Counted from the stretch's first letter, positions 17,181-63,318 are shown. The stretch is DNA of 64,000 bases from an uncultured Bacteroidales bacterium (GCA_963785325.1 CAWAVC010000025.1:202051-266050); one strand, 5' to 3'. The notes: generated by a model from the sequence alone, not told the origin. A program made the numbers and translations.

Positions 17181-17197
17181 TCGTATCTTTGCAGATT

Positions 17198-17797
17198 GGG
17201 TACTGGGTACTGGGTTCTGGGTTCTGGGTACTGGGTTCTGGGTACTGGGTTCTGGGTTCTGGGTTCTGGGTACTGGGTACTGGGTACTGGGTACTGGGTT
17301 CTGGGTTCTGGGTTCTGGGTTCTGGGTACTGGGTACTGGGTACTGGGTACTGGGTTCTGGGTACTGGGTTCTGGGTACTGGGTTCTGGGTACTGGGTTCT
17401 GGGTACTGGGTTCTGGGTACTGGGTTCTGGGTACTGGGTTCTGGGTACTGGGTTCTGGGTACTGGGTTCTGGGTACTGGGTTCTGGGTACTGGGTTCTGG
17501 GTACTGGGTTCTGGGTTCTGGGTTCTGGGTTCTGGGTACTGGGTACTGGGTACTGGGTACTGGGTACTGGGTTCTGGGTACTGGGTTCTGGGTACTGGGT
17601 ACTGGGTACTGGGTTCTGGGTTCTGGGTACTGGGTACTGGGTTCTGGGTACTGGGTTCTGGGTACTGGGTTCTGGGTACTGGGTTCTGGGTACTGGGTTC
17701 TGGGTTCTGGGTTCTGGGTACTGGGTACTGGGTACTGGGTTCTGGGTACTGGGTTCTGGGTACTGGGTTCTAGGTACTGGGTACGGGGTACGGGGTA
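17198..17797 (+). repeat. heptamer array, about 85 units, binary mix of GGGTACT and GGGTTCT
   Basis: Direct reading. Long stretches alternate strictly (14-bp period) and others form blocks of 4+4. The array is open in six frames, which produces the artefactual ORFs at 17135-17803. Confidence 0.97.
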
Positions 17798-24742: not shown

Positions 24743-26903
24743 TTAATCTTTGATTATCTTTCCCACTTCAACCGTTCTATCATTGGTTAATCGCACAAAA
24801 TAAACTCCACTTTGCAAATTGCTGATATTTATTTTTGTTTCAGGCTCAGTGATTTGGCGGTTCAATACCTCCTGACCGCTTAAGTTCAGAATGGATAATC
24901 GGCTTTGGGTATGAGTTTCTGATGTTTCGATGGTTACAAAGCCGGATGAAGGGTTGGGGTGAATGTTCAATTTGCCGGAGTTAAATGGTAATACAATGAA
25001 ACCCGCCGGATAACCTCCTCCGTTTGTAGTTTTTAAAATTGTTCCATTTTCTCCGACTGCATATCCTGTATTGGCATCAGTAAAATAAACTGAAGATAAA
25101 CTATTAGTTGTTCCGCTTGTTAATAAACTCCAGTTTGTGCCTCCATCAACGGTTTTAAAAATTCTTCCAATAGAATTGGACCAATTTATATTACCACTCA
25201 TAATATATCCTGTATTGGCATCTGTAAAGTATACTGAATTAAGCCAATCAGTTGTTCCGACCGATGAAGTAGTCCAGGTTTCACCTCCATCGATGGTTTT
25301 TAATATAATTCCTGTAGAAGAAGCAGACCCAATTATACTATCGCCTACCACATACCCTGTATTGGAATCAGTAAAATATATGGAATTTAAAAAATCATTT
25401 GGATCGTTAAATGCAACTGTCCAGTTTGCTCCTCCATTGATAGTTTTTAAAATGATCCCATAATTTACCACTACATACCCTGTTTCAGAATTAGTAAAGT
25501 AAACCGAATTAAAATTTTCACTTGAATCGCTATATATAATTGTCCAGTTTATGCCCCCATTGATAGTTTTTAAGATGGTCCCATTTTGCTGAGAACAATA
25601 ATTACCACCTGTCACATACCCGGTACTGGCATCGGGAAAGGAAAGTGAATATAAATCATTAGAAGTTCCGCTCGATAAAGAAGTCCCAGGTTTCACCTCC
25701 ATTGATGGTTTTCAAGATTGTTCCACTATCTCCAACTGTGTATCCTGTATTAGCATCGATAAAGCGAGCCGAAGATAAACTATTAGAAGTTCCGCTCGTT
25801 AAAGAAGTCCAATTTTCACCTCCATTGATGGTTTTTAAGATTGTTCCGCCTGTACCTATTGCATACCCAGTATTGGCATCGGCGAAGAAAACCGAAGATA
25901 AATAATTATAAGTTATTCCAGTTGATAAAATGGTCCATGTGGTACTTCCATTAATGGTTTTTAAGATAGTTCCACCGTTACCCACTACGTAGCCTGTATT
26001 GACATCGGTAAAGTAAACTGAATATAAACCGTTAGAAGTTCCGCTCGATAAAGAAGTCCATGTTTCACCTCCATTGATGGTTTTTAAGATGGTTCCGCTA
26101 TCGCCTACCGTATAACCCGTATTAGCGCCGATAAAGTAAACTGAAAATAAATCAATAGTGGTTCCGCTCGTTAAAAAAGTCCAAGTAGTGCCACCATTAA
26201 TGGTTTTCAGGATGGTTCCATGATTCTCCACTATATATCCTATACTGGCCTCGGTAAAGAAAACCGAAGATAAATCAACATACTGGTAACTCGGTAATAT
26301 AGTGGAAGTCCAGTTTGAACCTCCATCGATAGTTTTTAAGATGATTTCAATTGAATTAGACCCAACCAGACTATCTCCAACAACAAAGCCTGTATTGGCA
26401 TCCGTAAAGTAAACTGATAATAAAGGAGTAGTTGTTCCGCCCGACAAAGAAGTCCAGGTTTCACCTCCATTGATGGTTTTTAAAATTGTTCCACTATCTC
26501 CTACTGCATACCCTGTATTGGCATCGGTAAAGAAAACCGAAGATAAACAATTAGTTGTTCCGGTTGATAAAACAGTCCATGTTGTACCTCCGTCAATGGT
26601 TTTTAAAATAGTTCCGTTTTCCGGAAAATTATAATTACCACCTACTGCATAACCTGTATTTACATCTGTAAAGTAAACTGAAAATAAATAATCAGAAGTT
26701 CCGCCCGATAAAGAAGTCCAGGTTTCACCTCCATTAATGGTTTTCAAAAGTGTTCCACTTGTACCTACTGTAAACCCTGTATTGGCATCGATAAAGAAAA
26801 CTGAAGATAATGGATTGCCTTGTGGTAAGGGGTTTTGCCATATCCATTGTGAAAAAGCGGCAAATGGAAAAAAGGAAAAGAAAATGCAGATAACTTTTTT
26901 CAT
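24743..26903 (-). pseudogene. secreted BNR/Ycf48-like repeat protein with a T9SS sorting domain, split by a 1-nt indel (or a sequencing error)
   Basis: ORFs 25659-26903 (signal peptide, repeats GTILKTINGGETWTSLSSGTSN.LYSVYFTD) and 24743-25702 (the same repeats plus a Por_Secre_tail). The repeat phase is restored by removing one C from CCC at 25685-25687. Confidence 0.75.
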
Positions 26904-36727: not shown

Positions 36728-37215
36728 GGGGTACTGGGTACTAGGCACTGGGTACTGGGTACTGGGTACTGGGTACTGGGTACTAGGTACTAGGCAACTG
36801 GGTACTAGGTACTGGGTACTGGGTACTAGGCACTGGGTACTGGGTACTGGGTACTAGGCAACTGGGTACTAGGTACTGGGTACTGGGTACTGGGTACTGG
36901 GTACTGGGTACTGGGTACTAGGCAACTGGGTACTAGGCACTGGGTACTAGGCAACTGGGTACTAGGCACTGGGTACTGGGTACTAGGTACTAGGCACTGG
37001 GTACTGGGTACTAGGTACTAGGCACTGGGTACTGGGTACTAGGCAACTGGGTACTAGGCACTGGGTACTGGGTACTAGGCAACTGGGTACTGGGTACTAG
37101 GTACTGGGTACTAGGCACTGGGTACTGGGTACTGGGTACTGGGTACTAGGCACTGGGTACTGGGTACTAGGTACTGGGTACTATGCACTGGGTACTAGGC
37201 AACTGGGTACTGGGA
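36728..37215 (+). repeat. heptamer array, about 68 units: GGGTACT, AGGTACT, AGGCACT and the 8-mer AGGCAACT
   Basis: Direct reading. This array has its own private variant set. Its 3' edge supplies the complement of the stop codon of the minus-strand gene. Confidence 0.97.
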
Positions 37216-38230: not shown

Positions 38231-38616
38231 TGGTTCTGGGTATTGGGTACTGGGTTCTGGGTACTGGGTTCTGGGTTCTGGGTTCTGGGTACTGGGTACT
38301 GGGTATTGGGTACTGGGTACTGGGTACTGGGTTCTGGGTACTGGGTACTGGGTTCTGGGTACTGGGTTTTGGGTACTGGGTACTGGGTACTGGGTACTGG
38401 GTACTAGGTACTGGGTACTGGGTTCTGGGTTCTGGGTTCTGGGTTCTGGGTACTGGGCTCTGGGTACTGGGTTCTGGGTTCTGGGTTCTGGGTACTAGGT
38501 ACTGGGTACTGGGTACTGGGTACTGGGTTCTGGGTTCTGGGTTCTGGGTTCTGGGTACTGGGTTTTGGGTACTGGGTACTGGACTTTGCCTAGTACCCAG
38601 TACTTAGTACCTAGTG
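38231..38616 (+). repeat. heptamer array GGGTTCT/GGGTACT/GGGTATT/GGGTTTT, ending in a short inverted segment (38590-38616)
   Basis: Direct reading. The array fills the whole gap between the nifJ stop and the start codon of the DHOD-like gene. The terminal inverted part pairs with the adjacent units (about a 14-bp stem). Confidence 0.97.
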
Positions 38617-42294: not shown

Positions 42295-44560
42295 CTAGAA
42301 CCTGAATCCAACTATGGTGACCCCCGCTCCACCGTGCTCAAGTTCCTCATCCCCGAATTTCTTAACCTCCTTAACACTTGCAAGAATAATCCCTCGTGAC
42401 CTGTCGGAGGACTCCATTTCCTTTACCGTGCAGGATCCTGACTTCGGGAATGTTCAGGAGAATGGCGTCATCAATGTACTTCTGCAATAAGGCGTGGGCT
42501 TCGTCGGCCCGTTTCCCTCTCAAATCCAGTGTGAGCTCAAAATGAAGAAGCTTCCTCTGAAGATCGTCATAAAACGACTGATAGGGTCCGCGGGTAGTGG
42601 TGACCGCCGACTGTTTCGGGATCAGTGGTACAAACTTTTTCCCCTTTTGATCCTTTTTATCTTCTTTAGGAGCATCCTGTTCAATCCTGGCTTTTAGTTC
42701 CTGGATTTCCTGTCTCACTTCTTTTGTCCGGTTTTTATCTGCCTGGCTCTCCCTGATCTCTTTAATGGTCTTTTCAATGAGGCGGTTTGATTCATTCAAT
42801 ATATTAAGGGCTTCCTCCTTCGCCTTCCGGAGGATTTCTTTTTGTGAGATTTCCAGTTCTTCTTTCAGTCTGGTATATTTGGTGATCATCTCATTCAGAA
42901 ACTCATCTGCCACTTTAATTTCTGTGGATTTCTGTATCAGTTCTGTCTTTTCAGCTTCCAGGTTTTGGAGTTCCCGGTCGAAATCAAGCTGACTGGTCCC
43001 GGTCTTACCGGCAGCAGCCTTAAGCACCTTTGATGGAAATCCGATCTGACGTGCAATCTCAAAAGCAAATGAACTTCCGGGTTTGCCAATCTTTAACAGA
43101 TACAGCGGCTTCATTTTTACGGTGTCATATAGCATGGCACCATTAGCAATCCCGGGGGTCTTCCCGGCCAGAAGTTTAAGGTTTGAATAATGGGTGGTGA
43201 CCAGCCCGAATGCGTTTTTACGGTTCATCTCCTCAAGACTGGCTTCGGCTATAGGACCACCCAGGGCGGGATCGGTACCGGTTCCGAATTCATCGATCAG
43301 GAAAAGAGAATTTTCATCCAGGTGTTCAAGGAAAAATTTCAGGTTCAGCAACTTTGAAGTATAGGTGCTGAGGTCATTTTCGAGAGATTGTTCATCACCG
43401 ATATCGATGAAGATATTCCTGAAAACGCCAAAGACAGAATCTTCCTTTGAAGAAGGCAGCATCCCGCATTGAAACATATACTGTAACAATCCTGCTGTTT
43501 TGAGACAAACCGACTTACCGCCGGCATTCGGGCCTGAGATGATCAGAATCCTGTTCTCAGTATCCAGCTCGATGGAGAGTGGCACGACCTTTTTTTTCTG
43601 TCGCTGATGAGCAATGTACAGGAGAGGGTGAACTGCTTCTCTCCAATGAATAAGTGGCTTTTCTGAAAGAGTAGCAGGCAGTATTCCGTTGATCCGGATT
43701 GCCATCATGGCCTTGGCACGGATAAAGTCTATGGTTCCCAGGAAGTTGTATGCACGGATCAGTTCCCCGCAGCTTGGCCTGAGGCTATCGGTAAAGTCAG
43801 TCAGGATGTGGATAATCTCTCTGCGTTCAGCATAATCTAATTCACGAATCTCGTTATTGGTTTCAAGAACATCTGCAGGCTCAAGGTAAACGGTTTGCCC
43901 CGTAGCTGATTCGTCATGAACAAATCCCTGTAGTTTTCTTTTATGAGTACTTAATATTGGGATGACGAGTCTTCCGTCGCGCAAGGTCAATTCTGCATTT
44001 TCAGGAGTCCAGCCTGAATGCCTGGCCAGTTTCAGGTTCTGGGCAATCTTTTTTTCCACTGTCGCCAGCTTCGATCTTTTTTCCTTCCTGATCTTCTTCA
44101 AAGCTGCCGATGCCTCGTCCCTGACCTGCGATTTTTCGTCGATGATCCTGTCTATTCCCCTGATCAACTCCTTGTCGATGCTTATCTCTCCGCAGAGTAA
44201 GGAAAGATAAGGAAAATCATCCTCCGGATGCTTCCGGAAGAAATCAATGATCTGTGAGATGGAAGAGAGCGAAAGTTTCAGCAAGGATAGATTTTCAGGC
44301 TCGATAAATGTTCCTTCGATCCTTATCCTGAGTAGTTCAGAGGTCAGGTCATAATAATCCTGAGAAGGAAAATTTTCTTCCGATAAAAGGATGCGGCGCA
44401 ATTCCTCTGTCTGTCCCAGGAGCTGCCTGATCTCAGAAAGATCATCAGAAAACCCCATTTCCTCTGCATGGATTTTACCGGGACCGATACAGAATTCTTT
44501 CACAAGTTCCCGTATAGCATCAAATCCAATTTTCGATTCGAAATCAGAAGGAAAAACCAC
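42295..44560 (-). pseudogene. mutS2: endonuclease MutS2 with a frameshifted Smr-domain tail (or a sequencing error)
   Basis: Walker A GPNAGGKS and Smr motif ILHGKGNGVLRQ. After ...TRDY the conserved tail LASVKEVKKFGDEELEHGGAGVTIVGFRF continues in another frame down to a TAG inside a heptamer unit. The junction is near 42380-42392. Confidence 0.8.
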
Positions 44561-44590
44561 GATTAAAGTTTTGTGTAAAGGTACTATTTT

Positions 44591-44707
44591 ACTAGGTACT
44601 GGGTACTAGGTACTGGGTACTAGGTTCTGGGCACTGGGTACTGGGTGCTCTGGGTACTGGGTACTCTAGGTACTGGGTACTGGGTACTGGGTGCTGGGTA
44701 CTGGGTT
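44591..44707 (+). repeat. heptamer array GGGTACT/AGGTACT/GGGTGCT (5' arm of cassette D)
   Basis: Direct reading. Confidence 0.95.
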
Positions 44708-44765
44708 ATTAAATAAAAAATTCGTATTACTTTTTTGATTTTAGCCGATTAAGTTAATAAAAACC

Positions 44766-45140
44766 ATGAGCTATAAAAATCTTGAAATCTGGAAACTATC
44801 CAATGAACTGGTAAAAGAAATTCATCTGATGACAATAAATAAGCTACCTGGTTTCGAATTGTATGAAACAGGAAGCCAAATAAGGCGATCTAGTAAATCT
44901 GTGAAATCAAACATTGTTGAAGGCTATGGCAGACGAATATATAAACAAGAATATGTTCATTTTCTGATTATTGCAATTGCATCAAATGACGAAACGGTTG
45001 ATCATTTGGAAACGTTGTACATTACAGGTTCTTTAAAAGATGAGGTGTTATATCTTTCACTCACGTCAAAATATGAAAAACTCGGAAAAATGATTAATTC
45101 ATATATTGAAGCTGTAAAAAATGATTACAAAAAAAGATAA
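44766..45140 (+). CDS. four-helix-bundle protein (23S rRNA intervening-sequence protein / Avd-like family), divergent copy D
   Basis: LEIWKLSNELVKEIH...SQIRRSSKSVKSNIVEGYGR...FLIIAIASNDE has the family signature (W..a..l, Q..RAa.Si..NIaEG, a.gS..E). Confidence 0.8.
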   Translation: MSYKNLEIWKLSNELVKEIHLMTINKLPGFELYETGSQIRRSSKSVKSNIVEGYGRRIYKQEYVHFLIIAIASNDETVDHLETLYITGSLKDEVLYLSLTSKYEKLGKMINSYIEAVKNDYKKR

Positions 45141-45160
45141 TACCCAAGAACATAGAATCG

Positions 45161-45246
45161 AGCACCCAATACCCAGTACCTAGAGTACCCAGTACCCAGT
45201 ACCTAGTACCCAGAGTACCCAGTACCCAGAGCACCCAGTACCTAAC
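45161..45246 (-). repeat. inverted heptamer array (AGTACCC on +), 3' arm of cassette D
   Basis: AGTACCCAGTACCTAGTACCC is the perfect complement of GGGTACTAGGTACTGGGTACT in the 5' arm. Confidence 0.95.
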
Positions 45247-47857: not shown

Positions 47858-49366
47858 CATTCGGGGCGTAATGGCGCTAACATAATATAATTATTATTAT
47901 CTTTGGCAAATAATTAAAACCAAAGATTATGACACCAAACCAATCATTAGAACGGAGCAACCAATTAAGAAAGTTCTTTAGAGCAGACTATTTTCAAGGG
48001 ATGTACAGTGTTTTTCCATTTGAAGTAATAGAACAGTTTGATACTTCAGGTACCAGGGATAGAGTATATAGTTGCGAAAACACGATCTTGACTATGGTAT
48101 ACTCTTCCACCCAAACAGATAAGACACTCCAAAATTCAGTAAACATTTTTAGCAAGATTCATCAAAACCAATCCGTGCGAATAATTAATGAAGCGGGAGC
48201 AGCAATTGAGCGGGAGAAAATGGAGGATTTGAGAAACGTTGAAGTTCGTAGAGGTCCAAAGAAAAAGTACAAGGTAAAAGTACCCAAAAGTAAAATTTCT
48301 GAAATATCAGTCAATACTGCAGGATATTCAAAAGCACGGAAGCGGATAAAATTCGAATTATTTCAGGAAATATTTAATAAAACAAAAGAGAATGACAGTT
48401 CAACGGCATTATGGCACGGAAAGAGAACTTTCATAACAGATGGCACTTATGTTCAAATGCAAGACACGGAGGAACTTCGAAAGATTTACAATGTCAACCA
48501 CAATGATGAAGAACATAAAGATAGCTATCCTCAGGGCCTGATACAGGCCATAATAGAACAAGGCAGTGGATTTATTCATGATTATACTTTATCAGACAGA
48601 CATTCCTCAGAGTTGTTCTTGATTTACCAATTAATAAAAAGTATTCCAAAGGATTGTTTTTTGCTGGCTGATGATTTGTATAACTGTTATGCAATATTTG
48701 CATTGGCCAGGAAACAAGGCTTTGATCTGATTGTTCCGGGCAAAAGAGTGAAAAATTATACTGTTTTAAAAGTGCTCGCTAAAGGGGATGAAATAGTTGA
48801 AGTGCAAAAGAGAGAGCATCCGAAATGGTTACCCAAGAGTGAAATTTTACCGGCGAAATTGTTACTTAGAAGATTGTCTTTTCTTTCTCCTGATGGTGCT
48901 ACTACACTGGTTATATACACTACATGGATGGATAAGAATATTCCTGCAAGTGAAATAATCCTAAAATATTTTACACGATGGGACATTGAAATAACAATAC
49001 GTGAAATAAAAACAATAATGGATGTCAATGTACTTAGAGGAAAAACGGATGATATTGTCAAAAAGGAGCTTATTTCGGCATTCATTGCCTATAACCTGAT
49101 AAAAAAGATAATAATGCAGTCAACCGAAAAGACTGCTTTTTCCCCCGAAAGAGATATCATTCAAGAATTCTTTGAGAACAATAAGGACATTCTTATTGAC
49201 AGAAAAGGTAGAGTTTACACCAGATGGTCTCCAGGTAGATATGGTAAAACTGGGAAAAGAAATCCTTAAGCATGTTATTAAAAGAAAACAAGGCAGACAA
49301 TACCCAAGAAGAACAAAAAAAGGTGCTTATAGAAAATACAAATAATAAGTTATGTTAGCGCCATTA
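47858..49366 (+). mobile_element. IS4-family insertion sequence inserted into a C-rich/G-rich hairpin element
   Basis: Perfect 17-bp IRs TAATGGCGCTAACATAA (47868-47884, and 49350-49366 inverted). TCCCC is present on both sides (47853-47857, 49367-49371). Whether the left boundary is 47858 or 47868 is uncertain. An internal TATCTTTG box lies at 47897-47904. Confidence 0.75.
47929..49269 (+). CDS. IS4-family DDE transposase
   Basis: FITDGTYVQM, FLLADDLYNCY and YFTRWDIEITIREIKT (Y-R-E-K signature). Confidence 0.8.
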   Translation: MTPNQSLERSNQLRKFFRADYFQGMYSVFPFEVIEQFDTSGTRDRVYSCENTILTMVYSSTQTDKTLQNSVNIFSKIHQNQSVRIINEAGAAIEREKMEDLRNVEVRRGPKKKYKVKVPKSKISEISVNTAGYSKARKRIKFELFQEIFNKTKENDSSTALWHGKRTFITDGTYVQMQDTEELRKIYNVNHNDEEHKDSYPQGLIQAIIEQGSGFIHDYTLSDRHSSELFLIYQLIKSIPKDCFLLADDLYNCYAIFALARKQGFDLIVPGKRVKNYTVLKVLAKGDEIVEVQKREHPKWLPKSEILPAKLLLRRLSFLSPDGATTLVIYTTWMDKNIPASEIILKYFTRWDIEITIREIKTIMDVNVLRGKTDDIVKKELISAFIAYNLIKKIIMQSTEKTAFSPERDIIQEFFENNKDILIDRKGRVYTRWSPGRYGKTGKRNP

Positions 49367-53015: not shown

Positions 53016-53535
53016 ATGGAGAACTTGCAGCATTGGTATGCCGTTTACACGAAACCCAGGAGTGAAAAGAAATTAGCCGAACGGTTGAGCGATCAGGGTA
53101 TCGAGGCCTATCTTCCCATGCGCAAAACCCTGAAACAATGGTCGGACCGGAAGAAGATGGTTAGTGAGCCGCTGATTTCTTCTTATGTTTTCGTTAATAT
53201 TTTCCAGAAAGATTATCTTGAAGTACTCAAGAAATGCCCGAAGCGCGTGAGGTATATGTGGTTCTGCGGCAAGCCTGCTGTTATTCCTTCAAACCGAGAT
53301 CCAGTCATTGAAGCTTATCATAAAACCAGGACCTTGATATCCAACGTGTTTCGTCATCTTTTCCCACAAGGTACCCGTGTGCAGGTGGTCTCGGTCATTT
53401 GAAGGGACTTACGGCGAACTGCTGAACCATGCCGGGAAACATAGAGTCATGATCAGGCTCGATAATCTGGATAAGGCGCTACTGCTGACGATTTCACCAC
53501 GGCTGTTGGAGGAAGTGAATGTGAGTAGTGAATAG
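53016..53535 (+). pseudogene. UpxY-family (NusG-like) transcription antiterminator, disrupted by at least one and probably three frameshifts
   Basis: The NGN domain WYAVYTKPRSEKKLAERL...SYVFV is intact. EIQSLKLIIKPG, FPQGTRVQVVS and FEGTYGELLNHAGKHRVMIRL (KOW region) lie in alternating frames between 53294 and 53400. Confidence 0.7.
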
Positions 53536-54020: not shown

Positions 54021-54139
54021 TGTTTCAACTGGTCTACACCAATAGATTCAAAAAAGACATAAAACTTCTTCAGAAAAGAGGCTTTGACCTGAACTTGCTA
54101 AAAATCGTCATCTCCATTCTGGAAGAAAATAGTGAGTAG
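54020..54139 (+). pseudogene. YafQ/RelE-type toxin remnant (first ~37 codons only), cut off by the repeat arm of cassette A
   Basis: MFQLVYTNRFKKDIKLLQKRGFDLNLLKIVISILEEN matches the N-terminus of YafQ-type toxins (about 90 aa expected). The ORF then runs into AGTGAGT units and a TAG. Confidence 0.55.
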
Positions 54140-54161
54140 TGAGTGGTGAATAGTGAATGGT
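54131..54161 (+). repeat. 5' arm of cassette A (AGTGAGT, GGTGAAT, AGTGAAT)
   Basis: GTGGTGAATAGTGAATGGT at 54143-54161 is the perfect reverse complement of 54579-54597. Confidence 0.95.
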
Positions 54162-54177
54162 AAAAAAATGAATTTTC

Positions 54178-54524
54178 ATGGATCATAAAGATCTGGAGGT
54201 TTGGAAAGAATCAATGCTTCTTGCAAAGGAGGTATATTTTTTGACAAAAGGGTTTCCCAAAGAAGAAATATATGGGATTACCTCCCAAATCAGAAGAGCA
54301 TCGGTATCAGTTCCATCAAATATCGCTGAAGGCGCTGCAAGAAGTAGCGATAAAGAATTCATTCAATTTCTTTATATTTCCCTTGGTTCTCTCTCTGAAT
54401 TGGAAACTCAATTATTGTTATCCCGGGATTTGGAATTCATGAGGAATCCAGATATCTTACCAAAAATCGAATCGACAAAAAGAAAATTTTAGGTCTGATC
54501 AAATATCTGAAAAACAAAATTTAG
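54178..54524 (+). pseudogene. four-helix-bundle protein (23S rRNA IVS protein / Avd-like), copy A, with a 1-nt indel in an A-run near the 3' end (or a sequencing error)
   Basis: About 85% aa identity to copies B and C. After ...IESTK the tail KKILGLIKYLKNKI continues in another frame. The junction is at 54478-54490. Confidence 0.8.
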
Positions 54525-54548
54525 AAATAATGTAGTCGAATTCCCGCA

Positions 54549-54597
54549 CCCACACACACTACTAACTATTCACCTCTCACCATTCACTATTCACCAC
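54549..54597 (-). repeat. 3' arm of cassette A (inverted GGTGAAT/GGTGAGA units)
   Basis: See the 5' arm: 19-bp perfect complementarity. Confidence 0.95.
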
Positions 54598-55134
54598 TTG
54601 TTAGATACCCTTATCACAAGCAAGACGCGGATTAAGCTGCTGCTGAGGTTTTTCCTGAACAGCAACACTACTTCTTATCTGCGAAACCTGGAGACGGATT
54701 TCGACGAATCTACCAACTCCATCAGGATCGAGCTGAACAGGTTTGAGAAAGCCGGTTTGCTGGTTTCCGGGAAAGAACAGAACCGGAAGGTTTATAAGGC
54801 CAATACCAACCATCCCCTATTTCCCGATATCAACAATATCCTGAGGAAGTACATCGGGGTCGATCAGATCATCGATAAGGTGCTCGGACACCTGGGATCT
54901 GTAAATAAGGCATATATCACGGGTGATCTTGCGAGAGGAAAGGACGCCGACAGCATCAACCTCTACCTCATCGGCACTGAACTCGATCTCGACTACCTCA
55001 AACATCTCATAAAGAAGACTCAAACGCTGATACACCGCGGTATCAAGTATAAACTGCTGGACGAAGGGGAAGAAGCGGAATTTCTCAAAGAGAATCCAGA
55101 TGCATTTGTTATTTGGAAGGGGAATGGTGAATAG
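54598..55134 (+). CDS. winged-helix transcriptional regulator with a C-terminal nucleotidyltransferase-like domain
   Basis: MLDTLITSKTRIKLLLRFFLN...YLRNLE...IRIELNRFEKAGLL (ArsR-like wHTH). The TTG start directly abuts the repeat arm. Confidence 0.55.
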   Translation: MLDTLITSKTRIKLLLRFFLNSNTTSYLRNLETDFDESTNSIRIELNRFEKAGLLVSGKEQNRKVYKANTNHPLFPDINNILRKYIGVDQIIDKVLGHLGSVNKAYITGDLARGKDADSINLYLIGTELDLDYLKHLIKKTQTLIHRGIKYKLLDEGEEAEFLKENPDAFVIWKGNGE

Positions 55135-55238
55135 TGAATGGTGAGAGGTGAGAGGAGAAAAAGTGAGAGGTGAGAGGTGAGAGGAAAAAAAGTGAGAGGT
55201 GAGAGGTGAGAAGACGTGAGATGTGAGAAGTGAGAAGT
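55122..55238 (+). repeat. 5' arm of cassette B (GGTGAAT, then GGTGAGA blocks, GATGTGA, AGTGAGA)
   Basis: GTGAGAGGTGAGAGGTGAGA at 55192-55211 is complementary to part of 55628-55655. Confidence 0.95.
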
Positions 55239-55255
55239 AAAAAAAAAAGAATTTT

Positions 55256-55609
55256 ATGAATCATAAAGAGTTGGAGGTTTGGAAAGAGTCAATGATTCTT
55301 GCAAGGGAAGCTTACCTTTTGACTAAAGGTTTTCCTAAGGAAGAATTGTATGGAATTACTTCACAGATAAGAAGAGCATCGGTTTCTATACCATCAAATA
55401 TTGCAGAAGGTGCTGCACGAAGCAGTGATAAAGAATTCATTCAATTTCTATATATATCTCTGGGGTCACTCTCTGAACTTGAAACCCAATTCTTATTATC
55501 AAAAGATTTGAAATTTATTGAAAACCTTGAGGTTTTACATAAAATCGAATCGATAAAAATGAAACTTCTCGGCTTGATAAAATACCTGAAAAACAAAAAG
55601 AAAAAATAA
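55256..55609 (+). CDS. four-helix-bundle protein (23S rRNA IVS protein / Avd-like), copy B
   Basis: LEVWKESMILAREAY...SQIRRASVSIPSNIAEGAARSSDKEFIQFLYISLGSLSELETQ, 117 aa. Confidence 0.85.
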   Translation: MNHKELEVWKESMILAREAYLLTKGFPKEELYGITSQIRRASVSIPSNIAEGAARSSDKEFIQFLYISLGSLSELETQFLLSKDLKFIENLEVLHKIESIKMKLLGLIKYLKNKKKK

Positions 55610-55627
55610 CATCATACCTGTATTTAC

Positions 55628-55655
55628 ATCTCACCTCTCACCTCTCACCTCTCAC
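55628..55655 (-). repeat. 3' arm of cassette B (inverted GGTGAGA x4), followed by an AAACTTA array to 55710
   Basis: Direct reading. Confidence 0.95.
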
Positions 55656-55710
55656 AGCTTAACACTTAAAACTTAAAACTTAAAACTAATAACACTTAAA
55701 ACTAATACTT

Positions 55711-56413
55711 TTGAAAGCAGTAATTCTGGCGGGGGGTAAGGGAACGAGGTTGAAACCTTATACTACCGTTATTCCGAAGCCATTGGTGCCGGTTGGGGAG
55801 ACTTCGATTATCGAGATCCTGATCAGGCAACTTAAAAAGTCGGGAATTGAAGAGGTGGATGTGTGCCTGGGCCACTTTGCCGAAATCATCATGGCCTTCC
55901 TCGGAGATGGCAGCAAATGGGGAATAAAGATCAGGTATTCCGTTGAAACAAAGCTTATGGGGACAGTTGCTCCTCATTAAACTGCTCAGCGACCTGCCTG
56001 AGAATTTCCTGGTCATGAATGGCGATCTGCTGACAAATCTTGACTTTATGAATTTGTATGCTACCCATCTTAATAATGATTCATTGCTGACCGTTTCAAC
56101 GTATCAGCGGACGACAAAAATTGATTTTGGCGTTATCGAAACTGAAGGACAATCTGAGAAAGTTACCGGTTTTAAAGAAAAACCTGAATATAACTTCGAA
56201 GTCAGCATGGGGGTTTATGTGATGAACAGGAAGATCCTTGACTTTGTTCCCGATGACCAGCCTTTTGGGTTTGACGACCTGATGATCACACTGATTCAGA
56301 AGAAACAACCTATCTCAATCTACCGCTTCAATGGTTATTGGCTCGATATCGGGAGGCCGGATGATTATGAGAAGGCGAATGAGGATGTGGGAAAGGTGAG
56401 AGGTGAGAGGTGA
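55711..56413 (+). pseudogene. sugar-phosphate nucleotidyltransferase, split by a 1-nt indel (or a sequencing error)
   Basis: ILAGGKGTRLKPYT..IPKPLVPV in ORF1 and LVMNGDLLTN...WLDIGRPDDY in ORF2. The junction is at 55969-55977. TTG start. The stop lies inside a GGTGAGA unit. Confidence 0.8.
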
Positions 56414-56417
56414 GAAG
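56394..56417 (+). repeat. 5' arm of cassette C (GGTGAGA x3)
   Basis: Direct reading. Confidence 0.9.
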
Positions 56418-56434
56418 AAAAAAAATAAAAAAGT

Positions 56435-56788
56435 ATGAATCATAAAGATTTGGAAGTTTGGAAGGAATCGATGCTTCTTGCAAAGGAAGTATATCTTGTG
56501 ACAAAAGGTTTTCCTAAGGAAGAATTGTATGGAATTACTTCACAGATAAGAAGAGCATCGGTTTCTGTACCATCAAATATTGCAGAAGGCGCTGCACGAA
56601 GCAGTGATAAAGAGTTTATTCAATTTCTATATATCTCTCTTGGTTCCCTTTCTGAACTTGAAACCCAATTATTATTATCCCGGGATTTGAAATTTATTGA
56701 AAATCTGGATTTTTTACCAAAAATCGAATCGGTAAAAATGAAACTTATCGGCTTGATAAAATATCTTAAAAACAAAATGAAAAAATAA
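56435..56788 (+). CDS. four-helix-bundle protein (23S rRNA IVS protein / Avd-like), copy C
   Basis: 117 aa, about 90% identical to copy B. The nucleotide tract 56507-56566 is identical to 55328-55387. Confidence 0.85.
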   Translation: MNHKDLEVWKESMLLAKEVYLVTKGFPKEELYGITSQIRRASVSVPSNIAEGAARSSDKEFIQFLYISLGSLSELETQLLLSRDLKFIENLDFLPKIESVKMKLIGLIKYLKNKMKK

Positions 56789-56806
56789 CATCATAGTTGC
56801 ACTTAC

Positions 56807-56834
56807 ATCTCACCTCTCACTTCTCACTTCTCAC
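56807..56834 (-). repeat. 3' arm of cassette C (inverted GGTGAGA/AGTGAGA units)
   Basis: Direct reading. At least 13 bp is perfectly complementary to the 5' arm. Confidence 0.9.
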
Positions 56835-56844
56835 AATTTAAAAC

Positions 56845-57916
56845 TTGAAGATCGTAACGGTTATCGGGGCAAGGCCGCAGTTTATTAAGGCGGCGACTTA
56901 TGTCACGGTTACTTTGCATGTATCCTGATGTTGAAGAGATCCTCGTGCATACAGGGCAGCATTATGATCCGAATATGTCGGATATCTTTTTCGAGGAGCT
57001 GGATATTCCGCATCCTGATTTTAACCTGGAGGTCGGCTCAGGTTCTCACGCTGTTCAGACCGGTAAAATGCTCAGGGGTATAGAGACTATCCTTATGGAT
57101 AAAAAACCAGATTGGACACTGGTGTACGGTGATACAAATTCGACCCTTGCCGGTGCGCTTGCTTCCACGAAACTCAATATCCCCGTGGCTCATGTTGAGG
57201 CAGGGCTTCGATCCTTTAACCGGAAGATGCCTGAAGAGATCAACCGGATCGTGACAGACCATATTTCCGACCTCCTCTTCGCCCCTACCCCCACGGCTAT
57301 GGTCAACCTTGAAAAGGAAGGGCTGCTCGGATCAAGCTTCCAAACCGGAGATGTGATGTTCGATAGTACGCTATTTTACAAAGAGAAAATACTCAGGAAT
57401 CCTGACACGTATAAGACTAATGGACTTCCGGATAAATACCTGCTGGCTACGGTGCATCGTGCCGAAAATACCGATAACATCAATAACCTGAGAAACATTT
57501 TCAAGGCATTCTCTGAATCCCGGGAGACCATTGTGTTGCCCATCCATCCACGAACCCGGAAAAGCATCGCCAATATCATTCAGATTCCTGAAAATGTTCA
57601 CCTCATCGATCCCGTCGGATACCTTCAGATGCTTTATCTGACGATACATTCAGTCAAAGTCCTTACTGATTCAGGAGGCTTGCAGAAAGAGGCTTATTTT
57701 CTTGGTAAACAATGTATTACCCTGCGTACGGAAACGGAATGGCTGGAGACAGTTCACGATAATTGGAATATCGTTACAGGAACAGACCCGGATAAGATTC
57801 TGGGGGCTATACGGTCGGAAGTTCCTGATAAGCCTCAACATTCATCGTTTGGAGATGGACATGCGGCGGAGGCGATCGTTGAGAAGATAAAATGGGTACT
57901 GGGTACTGGGTACTAG
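56845..57916 (+). pseudogene. wecB: UDP-N-acetylglucosamine 2-epimerase with a frameshift after codon ~17 (or a sequencing error)
   Basis: (TTG)KIVTVIGARPQFIKAAT lies in one frame and SRLLCMYPDVEEILVHTGQHYDPNMS... in the next. There is one extra nt at 56896-56902 relative to the paralogous fragment at 62984. The tail WVLGTGY and the stop lie in a GGGTACT array. Confidence 0.8.
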
Positions 57917-58158
57917 GTACTGGGTACTGGGTACTGGGTACTAGGTACTGGGTACTGGGTACTGGGTACTGGGTACTAGGTACTGCAGACAAAGCGACGT
58001 GGTGAACTGGTGACAGAGTGATGTGGTGAACTGGTGAGAAGTGAATGGTGAGAGGTGAATAGTGAGTGGTGAATAGTGAGTGGTGAATAGTGAATGGTGA
58101 ATGGGAAAAAGTAATAAAGTGACAAAGTAACAAAGTAACAAAGTAACAGAGTAACAAA
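57894..58158 (+). repeat. mosaic array: GGGTACT x about 12, GGTGAACT/GGTGACAG, GGTGAAT/AGTGAGT, AAGTAACA octamers
   Basis: Direct reading. Confidence 0.95.
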
Positions 58159-58172
58159 TAATCACTGAAAAA

Positions 58173-59291
58173 ATGAACCCATTCAGTTACGGATCTATAG
58201 TCAGGGGGCCATATTTTTACGACAGAGTTCCGGAATGTAAGCGTATTGTTTCAACTTTATCAGGGGGAAACAATTTAGTGTTATTTGCACCCCGCCGTTA
58301 TGGAAAGACCTCTCTTGTTTTTCGAGTTATTGAGGAATTGGAAAAGATGGATTACACCTGCATCTATTTCGATTTTATGCCTGTTTATTCAAGAGAGTCA
58401 TTTATCGAAGCTTACTCAAAAGCCATTCTCGCAAAGCAAAGCAATCTTCAGCGTGCTGTTAAATCCATGGCCATCTGGGTAAAAGGCATCCGCACTAAAA
58501 TAGCATTTAACCAATCCGGAACCCCTGAATTCTCAATAGATTTTACAGACGATATCCTGACTGAAAAAACATTGGAAGATATTGTTGATTTACCCGAAAA
58601 ACTTGCTTCGGAAAGGAAACGATTTGTCATAATTTTTGATGAGTTTCAGGAAATAAATAAGTTGAATGGTGAGAATTTCGAAAAATTATTGCGCAGTAAG
58701 ATACAGCAGCAGCAATATATAACTTACATGTTTCTGGGAAGCCGTACCCATTTACTCAGTGATATGTTCAATAATAAGGCACGTTCGTTTTACAATGCTG
58801 CAATGTTGATGCAGTTGGACACTTTGCCTGAAAATGAAACCATCAGTTTTTTGAAAAACAGATTTGCCTTGTCAAATATTACCATTGATGAAGCTACGGC
58901 TATATTCCTTATTAAGCAAGCAGGAAATATTCCTTACTATATACAACTATTAGCTGCCGAAGTATGGCAAAATCTGGTATCATCATCTAAGAATTTAAAC
59001 ACAACTATTATTGCAGATTGTGCTGAGGGTATTGTTGATTTGAAAAGCGATTTTTACTTTGAGCTTTATGACAGGCAATCATCCTATCAGAAAAAATTAT
59101 TAAAATCTCTTCTGATCAGCGGTGAAAATGTATTTTCAGCAGATTATACAAAACGATTTCGTTTATCCGCCACATCGACAACTCAAAAAGCGTTACTGGG
59201 GTTGATAGAAACAGGTATCATTGAGAAATTGGGAGGTACATATTTTATTAGTGATCCATTTTTCAAACGATTTCTTTCACGTTACGCCTGA
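58173..59291 (+). CDS. AAA-type ATPase (archaeal-ATPase/DUF234-like)
   Basis: FYDRVPECKRI..., Walker A APRRYGKTSL and Walker B VIIFDEFQE. Confidence 0.65.
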   Translation: MNPFSYGSIVRGPYFYDRVPECKRIVSTLSGGNNLVLFAPRRYGKTSLVFRVIEELEKMDYTCIYFDFMPVYSRESFIEAYSKAILAKQSNLQRAVKSMAIWVKGIRTKIAFNQSGTPEFSIDFTDDILTEKTLEDIVDLPEKLASERKRFVIIFDEFQEINKLNGENFEKLLRSKIQQQQYITYMFLGSRTHLLSDMFNNKARSFYNAAMLMQLDTLPENETISFLKNRFALSNITIDEATAIFLIKQAGNIPYYIQLLAAEVWQNLVSSSKNLNTTIIADCAEGIVDLKSDFYFELYDRQSSYQKKLLKSLLISGENVFSADYTKRFRLSATSTTQKALLGLIETGIIEKLGGTYFISDPFFKRFLSRYA

Positions 59292-59317: not shown

Positions 59318-60665
59318 CAGGCGGACGAAAAAAAGTCACAAAGTGATAGAGTGATAGAGTGACAAAGTAAAAAAGCGGACAAGCGGACAAGCGGACGGAC
59401 GAGGTGGTGAGAAGTGAGAGGTGAGAAGTGAATGAAAAATTAATAAAAAGTCACAGAATTCACAAAGTAAAAAAGCGGACAAGCGGACAAGCGGACAAGC
59501 GGACGGACGAGGTGGTGAGAAGTGAGAGGTGAGAAGTGAATGAAAAATTAATAAAAAGTCACAGAATTCACAAAGTAAAAAAGCGGACAGGTGAACAAGC
59601 GGACAAGCGGACAAGCGGACAAGCGGACAAGCGGACGGACGAGGTGGTGAGAAGTGAGAGGTGAGAAGTGAATGAAAAATTAATAAAAAGTCACAGAATT
59701 CACAAAGTAAAAAAGCGGACAGGTGAACAAGCGGACAAGCGGACAAGCGGACAAGCGGACAAGCGGACGGGCGAGGTGGTGAGAAGTGAGAGGTGAGAAG
59801 TGAATGAAAAATTAATAAAAAGTCACAGAATTCACAAAGTAAAAAAGCGGACAGGTGAACAAGCGGACAAGCGGACAAGCGGACAAGCGGACGGGCGAGG
59901 TGGTGAGAAGTGAGAGGTGAGAAGTGAATGAAAAATTAATAAAAAGTCACAGAATTCACAAAGTAAAAAAGCGGACAGGTGAACAAGCGGACAAGCGGAC
60001 AAGCGGACAAGCGGACAAGCGGACAAGCGGACGGGCGAGGTGGTGAGAAGTGAGAGGTGAGAAGTGAATGAAAAATTAATAAAAAGTCACAGAATTCACA
60101 AAGTAAAAAAGCGGACAAGCGGACAAGCGGACAAGCGGACGGACGAGGTGGTGAGAAGTGAGAGGTGAGAAGTGAATGAAAAATTAATAAAAAGTCACAG
60201 AATTCACAAAGTAAAAAAGCGGACAGGTGAACAAGCGGACAAGCGGACAAGCGGACAAGCGGACGGGCGAGGTGGTGAGAAGTGAGAGGTGAGAAGTGAA
60301 TGAAAAATTAATAAAAAGTCACAGAATTCACAAAGTAAAAAAGCGGACAGGTGAACAAGCGGACAAGCGGACAAGCGGACAAGCGGACAAGCGGACAAGC
60401 GGACAAGCGGACAAGCGGACGGACGAGGTGGTGAGAAGTGAGAGGTGAGAAGTGAATGAAAAATTAATAAAAAGTCACAGAATTCACAAAGTAAAAAAGC
60501 GGACAAGCGGACAAGCGGACAAGCGGACAAGCGGACAAGCGGACGGGCGAGGTGGTGAGAAGTGAGAGGTGAGAAGTGAATGAAAAATTAATAAAAAGTC
60601 ACAGAATTCACAAAGTCAGAGTCACAAAGTAAAAAAGTGACAAAGTAAGGAAGTGAGAACCTTGA
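59318..60665 (+). repeat. higher-order repeat: 10 composite units of about 108-157 bp
   Basis: Each unit has (CAAGCGGA)n with n about 3-8, with or without GGTGAAC, followed by a constant module CG(A/G)GCGAGGTGGTGAGAAGTGAGAGGTGAGAAGTGAATGAAAAATTAATAAAAAGTCACAGAATTCACAAAGTAAAAAAGCGGA. The constant module was counted 10 times. Confidence 0.95.
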
Positions 60666-60689: not shown

Positions 60690-61544
60690 ATGAATACCCA
60701 TGTAGACATAGGTGAAATAATCTTATATCAGCCGGACGATAAATCCACACAACTTGAAGTCCGCATAGATGAAGAAACTGTATGGTTATCGCAAAGCCAA
60801 ATGGTTGAGCTTTTCAGTTCTACAAAGCAAAATGTAAGTTTGCATATTAGCAATATTTTTAAGGAAAATGAATTAGACCCAACTTCAACTGTCAAGGAAT
60901 ACTTGACAGTTCAATTGGAAGGAACAAGAAGGGTAAAGCGAAAGATGACCGTTTATAATCTTGACGTCATCATATCTGTAGGATATCGGGTTAAATCTCG
61001 GCGTGGTACGCAGTTTCGGATTTGGGCTAACCAGGTACTGAAAAATTATTTACTGAAGGGATATGTTCTGAATCAGCGTGTCGACAGGATTGAAAAAAAG
61101 CTGTTGGATCATGATCAAAAATTTGACTTAATGATAAAGACCAACCTGCTGCCAAACGAAGGGATTTTTTATGACGGGCAGATTTTTGATGCGTACCAGT
61201 TTGCATCGGATTTAATCAAATCTGCTAGCAAATCCATTGTGCTGATTGACAACTACGTGGATGAAAGCGTATTGACATTACTTTCGAAAAGAGCCACTGG
61301 AGTGACAGCTATGATATACACAGCCTCAGTTTCAAAACAACTGGCACTGGATCTGAAACGCTTTAATGCCCAATACCCGGTAATTAATGTGAAAACTTTT
61401 ACCAGATCGCACGACCGTTTCCTGATCATTGACAATTCTGCAATTTATCACATTGGGGCTTCATTAAAGGATCTTGGAAAGAAATGGTTTGCCTTTTCCA
61501 AAATCAAGTTTGATGCAATGGAGATGATTAAAAAATTGAAGTGA
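60690..61544 (+). CDS. RhuM-family protein (virulence-RhuM N-domain plus a C-terminal HxD/PLD-like segment)
   Basis: EVRIDEETVWLSQSQMVELF...NLDVIISVGYRVKSRRGTQFRIWANQVLK. C-terminal SHDRFLIIDN..IYHIGASLKDLGKK. Confidence 0.65.
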   Translation: MNTHVDIGEIILYQPDDKSTQLEVRIDEETVWLSQSQMVELFSSTKQNVSLHISNIFKENELDPTSTVKEYLTVQLEGTRRVKRKMTVYNLDVIISVGYRVKSRRGTQFRIWANQVLKNYLLKGYVLNQRVDRIEKKLLDHDQKFDLMIKTNLLPNEGIFYDGQIFDAYQFASDLIKSASKSIVLIDNYVDESVLTLLSKRATGVTAMIYTASVSKQLALDLKRFNAQYPVINVKTFTRSHDRFLIIDNSAIYHIGASLKDLGKKWFAFSKIKFDAMEMIKKLK

Positions 61545-61730
61545 AAGTCATAAAGTCAAGAAGTCACAAAGTAACAAAGTGACAAAGTGATAAACGGACA
61601 AGCGGACAGGAGAAAATCGTGACGCGGAAATCGTGGGAAGTGAGAGGTGAGAGGTGAGAGGTGAAAAAGTGAGAAGTGAGAGGTGAGAGGTGAGAAGTGA
61701 GTGGTGAGAAGTGAGTGGTGAGATGTGAAA
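61545..61730 (+). repeat. mosaic array: AAGTCA(C/T)A octamers, CAAGCGGA, AATCGTGACGCGG, GGTGAGA/AGTGAGA
   Basis: Direct reading. Confidence 0.9.
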
Positions 61731-62689: not shown

Positions 62690-62955
62690 AAAGTCACAAA
62701 GTCACAAAGTCACAAAGTCGCAGAGTAAAAGGCGGACAGGTGAACAAGCGGACAAGCGGACGAAAAAGGTCACAAAGTGACAGAGTGACAGAGTGACAAA
62801 GTAAAAAAGCGGACAAGCGGACAAGCGGATAAGCGGACGAAAAAAATCACAAAGTCACAGAGTAAAAGGCGGACAGGTGAACAAGCGGACAAGCGGACGA
62901 AAAAGGTCACAAAGTGACAGAGTGATAGAGTGACAAAGTCACAAAGTAAAAAAGG
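62690..62955 (+). repeat. second higher-order repeat (two units of about 120 bp built from AAGTCACA/AGTGACAG octamers and CAAGCGGA)
   Basis: GTAAAAGGCGGACAGGTGAACAAGCGGACAAGCGGACGAAAAAGGTCACAAAGTGACAGAGTGA occurs twice. Confidence 0.9.
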
Positions 62956-62983
62956 GAAAAAAACAGTAAACAGTACTTAACAC

Positions 62984-63318
62984 TTGAAGATTGTAACGGT
63001 TATCGGGGCAAGGGGGCAGTTTATTAAGGCGGCAACTATATCACGGTTACGAATTCATGATTCTGATGTTGAAGAAATATTGGCCCATACCGGGCAGCAG
63101 TATGATCCGAATATGCTGGATATCTTTTTCGAGGAATTGAATATCCCACATCCTGATTTTAATCTGGGGGTGGTTCAGGTTCTCATGCTATTCAGACCGG
63201 TAAAATGCTAAAGGGCATAGAGACTATCCTCCTGGATAAAAAACCAGACTGGACACTGGTGTATGGCGATACAAATTCGACGCTTGGCGGAGCAGTTGCT
63301 TCCATGAATTTAAACTAA
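62984..63318 (+). pseudogene. 5' fragment (about 105 codons) of a second UDP-GlcNAc 2-epimerase gene, frameshifted and truncated
   Basis: MKIVTVIGARGQFIKAAT...HTGQQYDPNM. There is a frameshift at the G-run 63166-63170, then SGSHAIQTGKMLKGIETILLDKKPDWTLVYGDTNSTL..., ending MNLN*. By eye it is roughly 80-90% identical to 56845-57185. Confidence 0.8.

Follow-up and report, generated by a model that had tools for sequence, protein, structure and literature searches.

A ten-unit higher-order tandem repeat between an ATPase gene and rhuM in an uncultured Bacteroidales bacterium

The BIMEs of E. coli, the NIMEs of Neisseria and the pneumococcal BOX elements (boxA-boxB(n)-boxC) consist of palindromic, hairpin-forming units and are present in many dispersed copies. 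Mosaics of the BIME/NIME type are recognized by their imperfect palindromes (REP, dRS3), the orientation of which often alternates. Dispersed arrays of tandem heptamers have been described in cyanobacteria, Xanthomonas, Beggiatoaceae and a few Bacteroidetes, and there is no agreement about their function (PMC4679880, PMC4692102). Neither of these papers describes a second level of array organization, and a literature search for bacterial higher-order repeats returned no specific description. Tandem heptamers are also present in the 23S IVS of Coxiella, where they lie just upstream of the S23p ORF, within a stem that is cleaved by RNase III, and vary among strains (PMC4990558). PF05635, the family of this ORF, is the Avd-like family of diversity-generating retroelements (PMC10053308). 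The locus described here lies in a stretch of 64,000 nucleotides from an uncultured Bacteroidales bacterium (GCA_963785325.1 CAWAVC010000025.1:202051-266050), referred to below as the window, and positions are counted from its first letter.

Decomposition by script resolved positions 59403..60616 of the + strand into ten constant cores of 66 bp (GGTGGTGAGAAGTGAGAGGTGAGAAGTGAATGAAAAATTAATAAAAAGTCACAGAATTCACAAAGT), with nine variable tracts between them. The ten cores are 100% identical and start at 59403, 59511, 59643, 59775, 59899, 60039, 60147, 60271, 60427 and 60551. A whole unit comprises, in order, four GTGAGAR heptamers, an A-rich junction (GTGAATGAAAAATTAATAAAAA) and three degenerate AAAGTSAC octamers, which together make up the core, followed by a AAGCGGAC tract. 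The inter-core tracts contain 3, 5, 5, 4, 6, 3, 4, 8 and 5 CAAGCGGA octamers, and because of this variation in octamer number (3-8 per tract) the unit lengths range over 108-156 bp (in order, 108, 132, 132, 124, 140, 108, 124, 156 and 124 bp). Each of the nine inter-core intervals starts with AAAAAAGCGGA and ends with GGACGA or GGGCGA. TRF, run on the array, returned periods of 108, 124, 132, 156 and 264 with scores of 1390-1603. A 25-mer from the core gave 10 matches at three or fewer mismatches, compared with 0 expected from 100 shuffles, and the rest of the window contained no match. Sequence variation between units is confined to the octamer tract, the cores being invariant; the variant octamer CAGGTGAA, which is CAAGCGGA with three substitutions, fills the first octamer position of units 2, 3, 4, 5, 7 and 8. 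The + strand of the array is 43% A, 32% G, 13% C and 11% T (76% purine). From block to block the cores are completely alike while the heptamers and octamers inside them differ from each other, as in a higher-order repeat. In the manner of long simple-sequence repeats, CAAGCGGA is repeated head to tail 3 to 8 times in the nine tracts and GTGAGAR four times in each core, and these unit families recur at many loci across the window, most of them intergenic.

These data bear out the original prediction of a ten-unit higher-order repeat with 3-8 octamer copies between modules, built from the small array families of the window and amplified as a block. The 77-bp module string given there occurs 9 times rather than ten because the tenth copy meets a different right flank. 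Of the two allelic differences that had been proposed, GGACGGAC versus GGACGGGC is real; the forms "with or without GGTGAAC" involve no indel and are accounted for by the variant octamer CAGGTGAA. The left flank (59318..59402, + strand) consists of degenerate AAAGTSAY octamers and then a first AAGCGGAC tract with GGACGGACGA at its end. It is a paralogue of 62757-62830 plus 62895-62950 (family D3) and forms the seed composite that leads into the array. The right flank (60617..60665, + strand) is made of degenerate AAAGTSAC octamers and one GTGAGAA and ends 25 nt before the rhuM start codon.

The repeat block fills the entire spacer from the stop codon of an ATPase gene to the start codon of rhuM within a co-directional gene cluster. 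Its predicted placement, in the accessory part of a polysaccharide locus and between AAA ATPase and RhuM-family genes, agrees with the gene content and with the Pfam assignments. The upstream gene (58173..59291, + strand) encodes an AAA ATPase (PF01637 ATPase_2, E=4e-14), and its stop codon is 27 nt before the repeat block. Downstream is a gene of the RhuM family (PF13310, 60690..61544, + strand, E=2e-26), the product of which matches the PADLOC candidate defence family PDC-S05 (E=1e-124). The cluster opens with a NusG-like (UpxY-type) gene (53016-53402) and contains nucleotidyl-transferases, epimerases and three PF05635 genes; an MNT/HepT pair follows rhuM. The 5' end of a wecB-type epimerase gene (56838-57171) has a duplicate at 62977-63308, a frameshifted fragment that is 84-92% identical, so that a 6.1-kb accessory segment is flanked by direct repeats of this gene end. 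Between the two copies are the ATPase gene, the repeat block, rhuM and the MNT/HepT pair, which suggests that the polysaccharide locus was recently rearranged or received an insertion. At the syntenic locus of a relative (L128) the ATPase_2 gene is directly followed by short arrays and then by wecB, and the large array is absent. The MutS2 protein of the window (42371-44560) shares 90% identity with its counterpart in an uncultured Prolixibacteraceae MAG and 81% with those in two Bacteroidales MAGs. A DDE_Tnp_1 transposase gene (IS element) is present at 47929-49269, about 10 kb upstream of the polysaccharide cluster.

The module had been described as a mosaic of the window's repeat families plus an AT-rich core. 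The first part of this description stands, and the AT-rich segment (59426-59475) proved to be no separate element. Its best local alignment is with 58096-58143 (score 46, compared with a maximum of 36 for 30 shuffles), the junction at which a GTGAATR heptamer array meets a AAAGTAAC octamer array in the preceding spacer, 1.3 kb upstream. The composite to which this junction belongs (58025..58165, + strand), delimited by TRF and alignment, consists of GTGAGWR/GTGAATR heptamers, an A-rich junction and AAAGTAAC octamers and is, as judged from the alignment, the nearest relative of the AT-rich segment. An origin of this segment as a remnant of an IVP leader was considered and rejected, the best match being an array junction. 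A single-copy composite at 61544..61730 (+ strand; TRF; families D3, D4 and D6) contains AAAGTCAY octamers, AAGCGGAC and GTGAGAG heptamers; the order of families matches that of one array unit and occurs once. Taken together with the junction paralogue at 58096-58143, this order indicates that the unit is an ordinary composite spacer of the genome. The smaller two-unit relative that had been reported at 62690..62955 (+ strand) is real, although half of the module is missing from it. It consists of alternating AAAGTSAC and AAGCGGAC tracts (TRF period 60 x2.2) in units of about 137 bp, with 62706-62824 and 62843-62961 90% identical (family D7), and shares with the array only these tracts and the CAGGTGAA variant, lacking the GTGAGAR tract and the AT-rich junction.

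The window contains 48 blocks of short arrays, which amount to 6.4 kb or 10.1% of its length, and the block under study is the largest of them. They often take up nearly a whole spacer, leaving only a few bases after the preceding stop codon and before the following gene. GTGAGAR clusters at about 18 sites in the window and GGGTWCT at 10. The numbers of copies on the + and - strands are 133:11 for GTGAGAR, 285:12 for GGGTWCT and 68:0 for AAGCGGAC, and when array blocks are counted 29 are G-rich on the + strand versus 3. Nearly all of the minus-oriented GTGAGAR and GGGTWCT copies are the downstream arms of four PF05635 genes described below, and several of the exceptions to the G-rich + strand orientation are arms of PF05635 cassettes. 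The G-rich strand is the + strand even between two minus-strand genes (38232-38582), and orientation is therefore not simply tied to transcription. A rule by which orientation follows transcription (Rho avoidance) was tried and rejected: among 118 mixed metagenome loci 34 were same-sense and 25 antisense, and the rule is contradicted by L128 as well as by the interval 38232-38582. An orientation that follows replication fits the 29 and 3 blocks of the window; the cause may also lie in the polarity of recombination or in selection.

Arrays of (GGGTACT)n and (GGGTTCT)n, with up to about 85 units, are located at 2166-2730, 17197-17796, 36729-37214, 38232-38582 and other positions. These G3N4 repeats constitute a canonical G-quadruplex motif and resemble the GGGNATC repeats of Xanthomonas and Nostoc (PMC4692102). 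Repeats of 123-141 bp with 72-79% identity occur on the minus strand at 25350-26756, inside the ORFs 24743-25702 and 25659-26903; they are coding domain repeats and bear no relation to the short arrays.

Composites that resemble the array were found in related and metagenome contigs, all of them smaller than the one in the window. In a long-read relative (L006) an 83-bp unit, made of TAGTGAG heptamers and a G/C-rich motif, is repeated 5.3 times. Octamer tracts and a fixed linker make up a 96-bp unit repeated 4.1 times (L098 and L071) and a 72-bp unit repeated 3.1 times (L098). A 42-bp unit, mostly four octamers and a 10-nt linker, is repeated 2.5-6.5 times at about ten loci, and in L128 a 183-bp unit is repeated 2.2 times. 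The statement that the block is unusual for a bacterial chromosome is thus fair with respect to size and nesting, but its design recurs in these smaller composites. Most of the contigs that bear them are probably short-read assemblies, which would break at repeats of this kind. Exact (AAGCGGAC)3 is present in 118 metagenome stretches, usually beside other short arrays, which is hard to reconcile with a purely local, accidental origin of the octamer family. In L098 (6300-7900), and also in L071, the 72-bp and 96-bp arrays flank or interrupt a gene of the fumarate-lyase family (GSSIMPGKINP motif). The L098 units are multiples of 3 with one open frame; possibly the gene is disrupted, or else the array is an insertion that is translated.

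Some of the families that make up the array also occur beside PF05635 genes, which encode four-helix-bundle proteins. The window contains four PF05635 (23S_rRNA_IVP) genes, at 44766, 54178, 55256 and 56435, each of which lies between an array and its reverse complement, and the corresponding cassettes occupy 44590-45242, 54125-54599, 55133-55660 and 56382-56835. These four neighbours have what is characteristic of an IVS-like cassette, an ORF in the loop of a predicted long stem (fold z = -14.1 and -6.0), located here between protein genes and outside rRNA. Eleven further genes, on unrelated contigs (L007, L028, L094, L128, L130, L132, L133, L134 and L135) that include MAGs of Dehalococcoidia, Sericytochromatia and Halobacteriota, gave the same result. 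All 15 of the PF05635 genes sampled, from four phyla, have a 7-8-nt tandem array on one side and the reverse complement of that array on the other; these fifteen are not all independent, because some of the Bacteroidales loci overlap. The arm family differs by locus, each having its own 7-8-nt family, and one of these is AAGCGGAC/AAGTGAAC. A literature search did not find an association of PF05635 genes with repeat arrays outside rRNA, the paper on the Coxiella IVS being the nearest. In the Sericytochromatia MAG (L132, 4994-5350) the cassette lies between AAA-ATPase_like (PF09820) and PDDEXK_9 (PF08011) parts, as if inserted into a gene that usually encodes one PF09820-PF08011 protein.

The repeat block is non-coding. 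There are stops in all six frames of the array, and no frame is preserved across units of 124 and 140 bp; together with the lack of gene calls in the array region of L001, a second long contig described below, this led us to reject a coding repeat protein. One unit folds no better than shuffled sequences (z = +0.57 and +0.97 on the two strands), and the block is less structured than shuffled sequence. A proposed role for the AT-rich core as promoter or terminator found no counterpart in the predictions: no promoter-like or intrinsic-terminator-like site was detected within the array by a sigma-70-type scan, which does not model Bacteroidota promoters. Rfam yielded no match to the array at E <= 1. 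A search for the module in other genomes, which had been recommended, gave 0 exact 36-mer matches in GTDB species genomes, JGI metagenomes and IMG/VR. Among plasmids and phages the 5.4-kb accessory segment was unmatched. The possibility raised earlier that the block is part of a known mobile element is answered by its absence from the plasmid, phage and viral records searched; terminal inverted repeats, dispersed copies and mobile-element records were not found, and the module is present at a single locus only. The inter-core intervals are octamer tracts rather than the unique spacers of a CRISPR, and the block has neither the PF05635 ORF nor the inverted arm of an IVS-like cassette.

It is conceivable in principle that the repeat was expanded or mis-joined during assembly. 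The short-read contigs from ERR11748453 end at the array edges (L002 and L126), one of them, L002, beginning within the last core and running on into rhuM, and repeat size can be wrong in a long-read consensus. However, an identical RhuM protein is also encoded by a 24-kb contig (L001; ENA ERZ25039480 contig_38709), in which there are ten cores with nine spacings equal to those of the window, all nine tract lengths and octamer counts being identical. Over 13.3 kb the two sequences differ in 151 alignment columns. About 45 of these differences are substitutions clustered in the ATPase gene (58307-59239), which implies that L001 is a different haplotype and no mere copy. Two differing long contigs thus share the 10-unit layout, so that the expansion of a single unit in assembly, against which the original prediction had cautioned, is already largely refuted and we consider an artefact extremely improbable. 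Within the array the two haplotypes differ by 5 substitutions only; these are confined to the CAGGTGAA octamers in units 2 and 3, where L001 reads CAAGCGGA and CAAGTGGA. The shift is towards CAAGCGGA and looks like conversion to the consensus octamer rather than independent point mutation. Exact-protein look-ups with RhuM, the ATPase, the MNT protein and an IVP gene returned the same three sources only, with two array haplotypes. The comparison reveals no copy-number variation between haplotypes, a weak test with n=2 (window and L001). It bears nonetheless on the idea of a phase-variable contingency locus, in which slippage in the octamer tracts, or a change in unit number, switches expression of rhuM or of downstream genes. 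Octamer numbers do range from 3 to 8 and differ by unit, and heptamer number in the Coxiella 23S IVS differs among strains (PMC4990558). Since the counts are identical in all nine tracts of the two haplotypes, and since the tracts lie outside ORFs and outside any promoter spacer recognizable by a scan not modelled on Bacteroidota promoters, we regard phase variation as very unlikely.

Two other readings assign the block a present role or a different past. As a cis-regulatory array, the block would control rhuM or read-through in the polysaccharide cluster, either through a protein that binds the module or its RNA or by serving as a series of promoters or terminators; in one version, a C-poor spacer would evade Rho on the sense strand. 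The spacer is filled to within 25 nt of the rhuM start codon, a NusG-like gene heads the cluster, and the purine content of the + strand, with C at only 13%, is what the Rho version would call for. Moreover, the G-rich heptamer repeats near stop codons in Xanthomonas are reported to be transcribed (PMC4692102). Against this stand the lack of promoter- or terminator-like sites in the scan just mentioned, of RNA structure and of Rfam matches, the failure of the module to appear in any of the collections searched and the absence of such an array from the syntenic L128. Evasion of Rho is further opposed by the sense-oriented C-rich arrays that lie between + genes in L128 and by the G-rich array of the window that is antisense between two minus-strand genes. 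On balance a regulatory array seems to us quite improbable. Nor do we think it likely that the block is a relic or by-product of the IVS-like PF05635 cassettes, its units being decayed arms and leaders left after loss of the ORF, or having been laid down by the process that builds the arms. Three PF05635 cassettes 3-5 kb upstream have arms of the GTGAGAR family, a PF05635 gene in L028 is enclosed by inverted arms made of AAGCGGAC/AAGTGAAC arrays, and inverted arrays bracket every PF05635 gene in the sample. But the block contains no inverted arm, as the 68:0 distribution of AAGCGGAC illustrates, and no ORF remnant, and its core aligns to an array junction and not to a cassette leader.

Our preferred reading is that the block, a satellite-like, non-coding higher-order tandem repeat, is probably a by-product of recombination rather than a working device. 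An ordinary composite spacer would have multiplied when adjacent arrays of one family underwent out-of-register homologous recombination or replication slippage. Later exchanges would have taken place mostly within the octamer tract, which offers the longest perfect short-period homology. Each such exchange would alter the number of units and re-deal the octamer count, leaving the 66-bp core untouched, and exchange within the tract would therefore produce identical cores beside differing tracts. Gene conversion among the units may maintain the homogeneity of the array. The markers at the two ends of the tract, presence or absence of CAGGTGAA at the 5' end and GGACGGAC (A) or GGACGGGC (G) at the 3' end, can be used to look for such exchange. 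Absent/A is found in units 1 and 6, present/A in 2 and 8, present/G in 3, 4, 5 and 7, and absent/G in 9. The occurrence of all four combinations, a positive four-gamete test, points to exchange between the tract ends. On the other hand, the identical counts in the two haplotypes mean that no copy-number instability was seen, which is unexpected if exchange is frequent. The perfect identity of the ten cores could also reflect selection, as an alternative to recency or conversion, and the near-uniform orientation of the arrays is not explained by neutral slippage. If the cluster is transcribed as one operon, the block would be carried passively as a purine-rich, unstructured spacer. Most likely it has no sequence-specific function and would be neutral.

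The block may be viewed as an extreme outcome among the short arrays that populate the genome, the families of which also form the inverted arms of the IVS-like PF05635 cassettes. It indicates that the short-repeat arrays of bacteria are able to recombine into satellite-like higher-order structures. Since short-read assemblies break at such arrays, these will be invisible in most MAGs, and long-read MAGs merit screening. Of greater importance than the repeat block itself is the pattern that links PF05635 genes with strand-biased arrays. Tentatively, and as a possibility about which we are more doubtful than confident, the 7-8-nt array families of many genomes could be the terminal arms of widespread, barely described IVS-like selfish cassettes, with solo and higher-order arrays as their debris or recombination products. 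Each cassette may consist of a PF05635/Avd-like ORF in the loop of a stem formed by inverted heptamer arrays, in the manner of a 23S IVS. If this were true, the unexplained heptamer repeats seen in Bacteroidota, cyanobacteria and other groups would have a common origin, and PF05635 proteins would have a cognate nucleic-acid partner. A causal link between arrays and PF05635 would explain both where bacterial heptamer repeats come from and what role is played by a very large protein family of unknown function.

As a whole, the block falls under the definitions of long simple-sequence repeats and of a higher-order repeat, and it shares some features with other known systems. Like BIMEs, NIMEs and BOX elements it is intergenic, probably transcribed and modular, composed of short motifs with one module variable in number. 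It differs from them in having no palindromes, as the positive folding z-scores attest, in the co-orientation of its motifs (68:0 and 133:11) and in the restriction of its module to a single locus. The 23S rRNA IVS of Coxiella and Leptospira, with its S23p/PF05635 ORF, is matched by the neighbouring PF05635 genes, which likewise have an ORF in the loop of an inverted-repeat stem and tandem heptamers just upstream of it (PMC4990558); the repeat block, in contrast, has neither the ORF nor the inverted arm. As in eukaryotic satellite higher-order repeats and compound minisatellites, its blocks are far more similar to each other than are their sub-repeats, a microsatellite is nested in a longer unit, and unequal exchange or conversion probably homogenizes the whole. 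Unlike those satellites, it measures only 1.3 kb, has ten units, occupies a bacterial intergenic spacer and plays no structural role in a chromosome. The block also resembles the prokaryotic 5-11-nt repeats (cyanobacterial STRR-type heptamers, TAACTGA and GGGNATC), which also form dispersed 7-8-nt arrays with several families per genome, mostly intergenic and often just past stop codons among co-directional genes (PMC4679880, PMC4692102). What distinguishes the block from these is that it joins three such families into a unit of 108-156 bp, repeated ten times, within which an octamer tract of variable length is nested.
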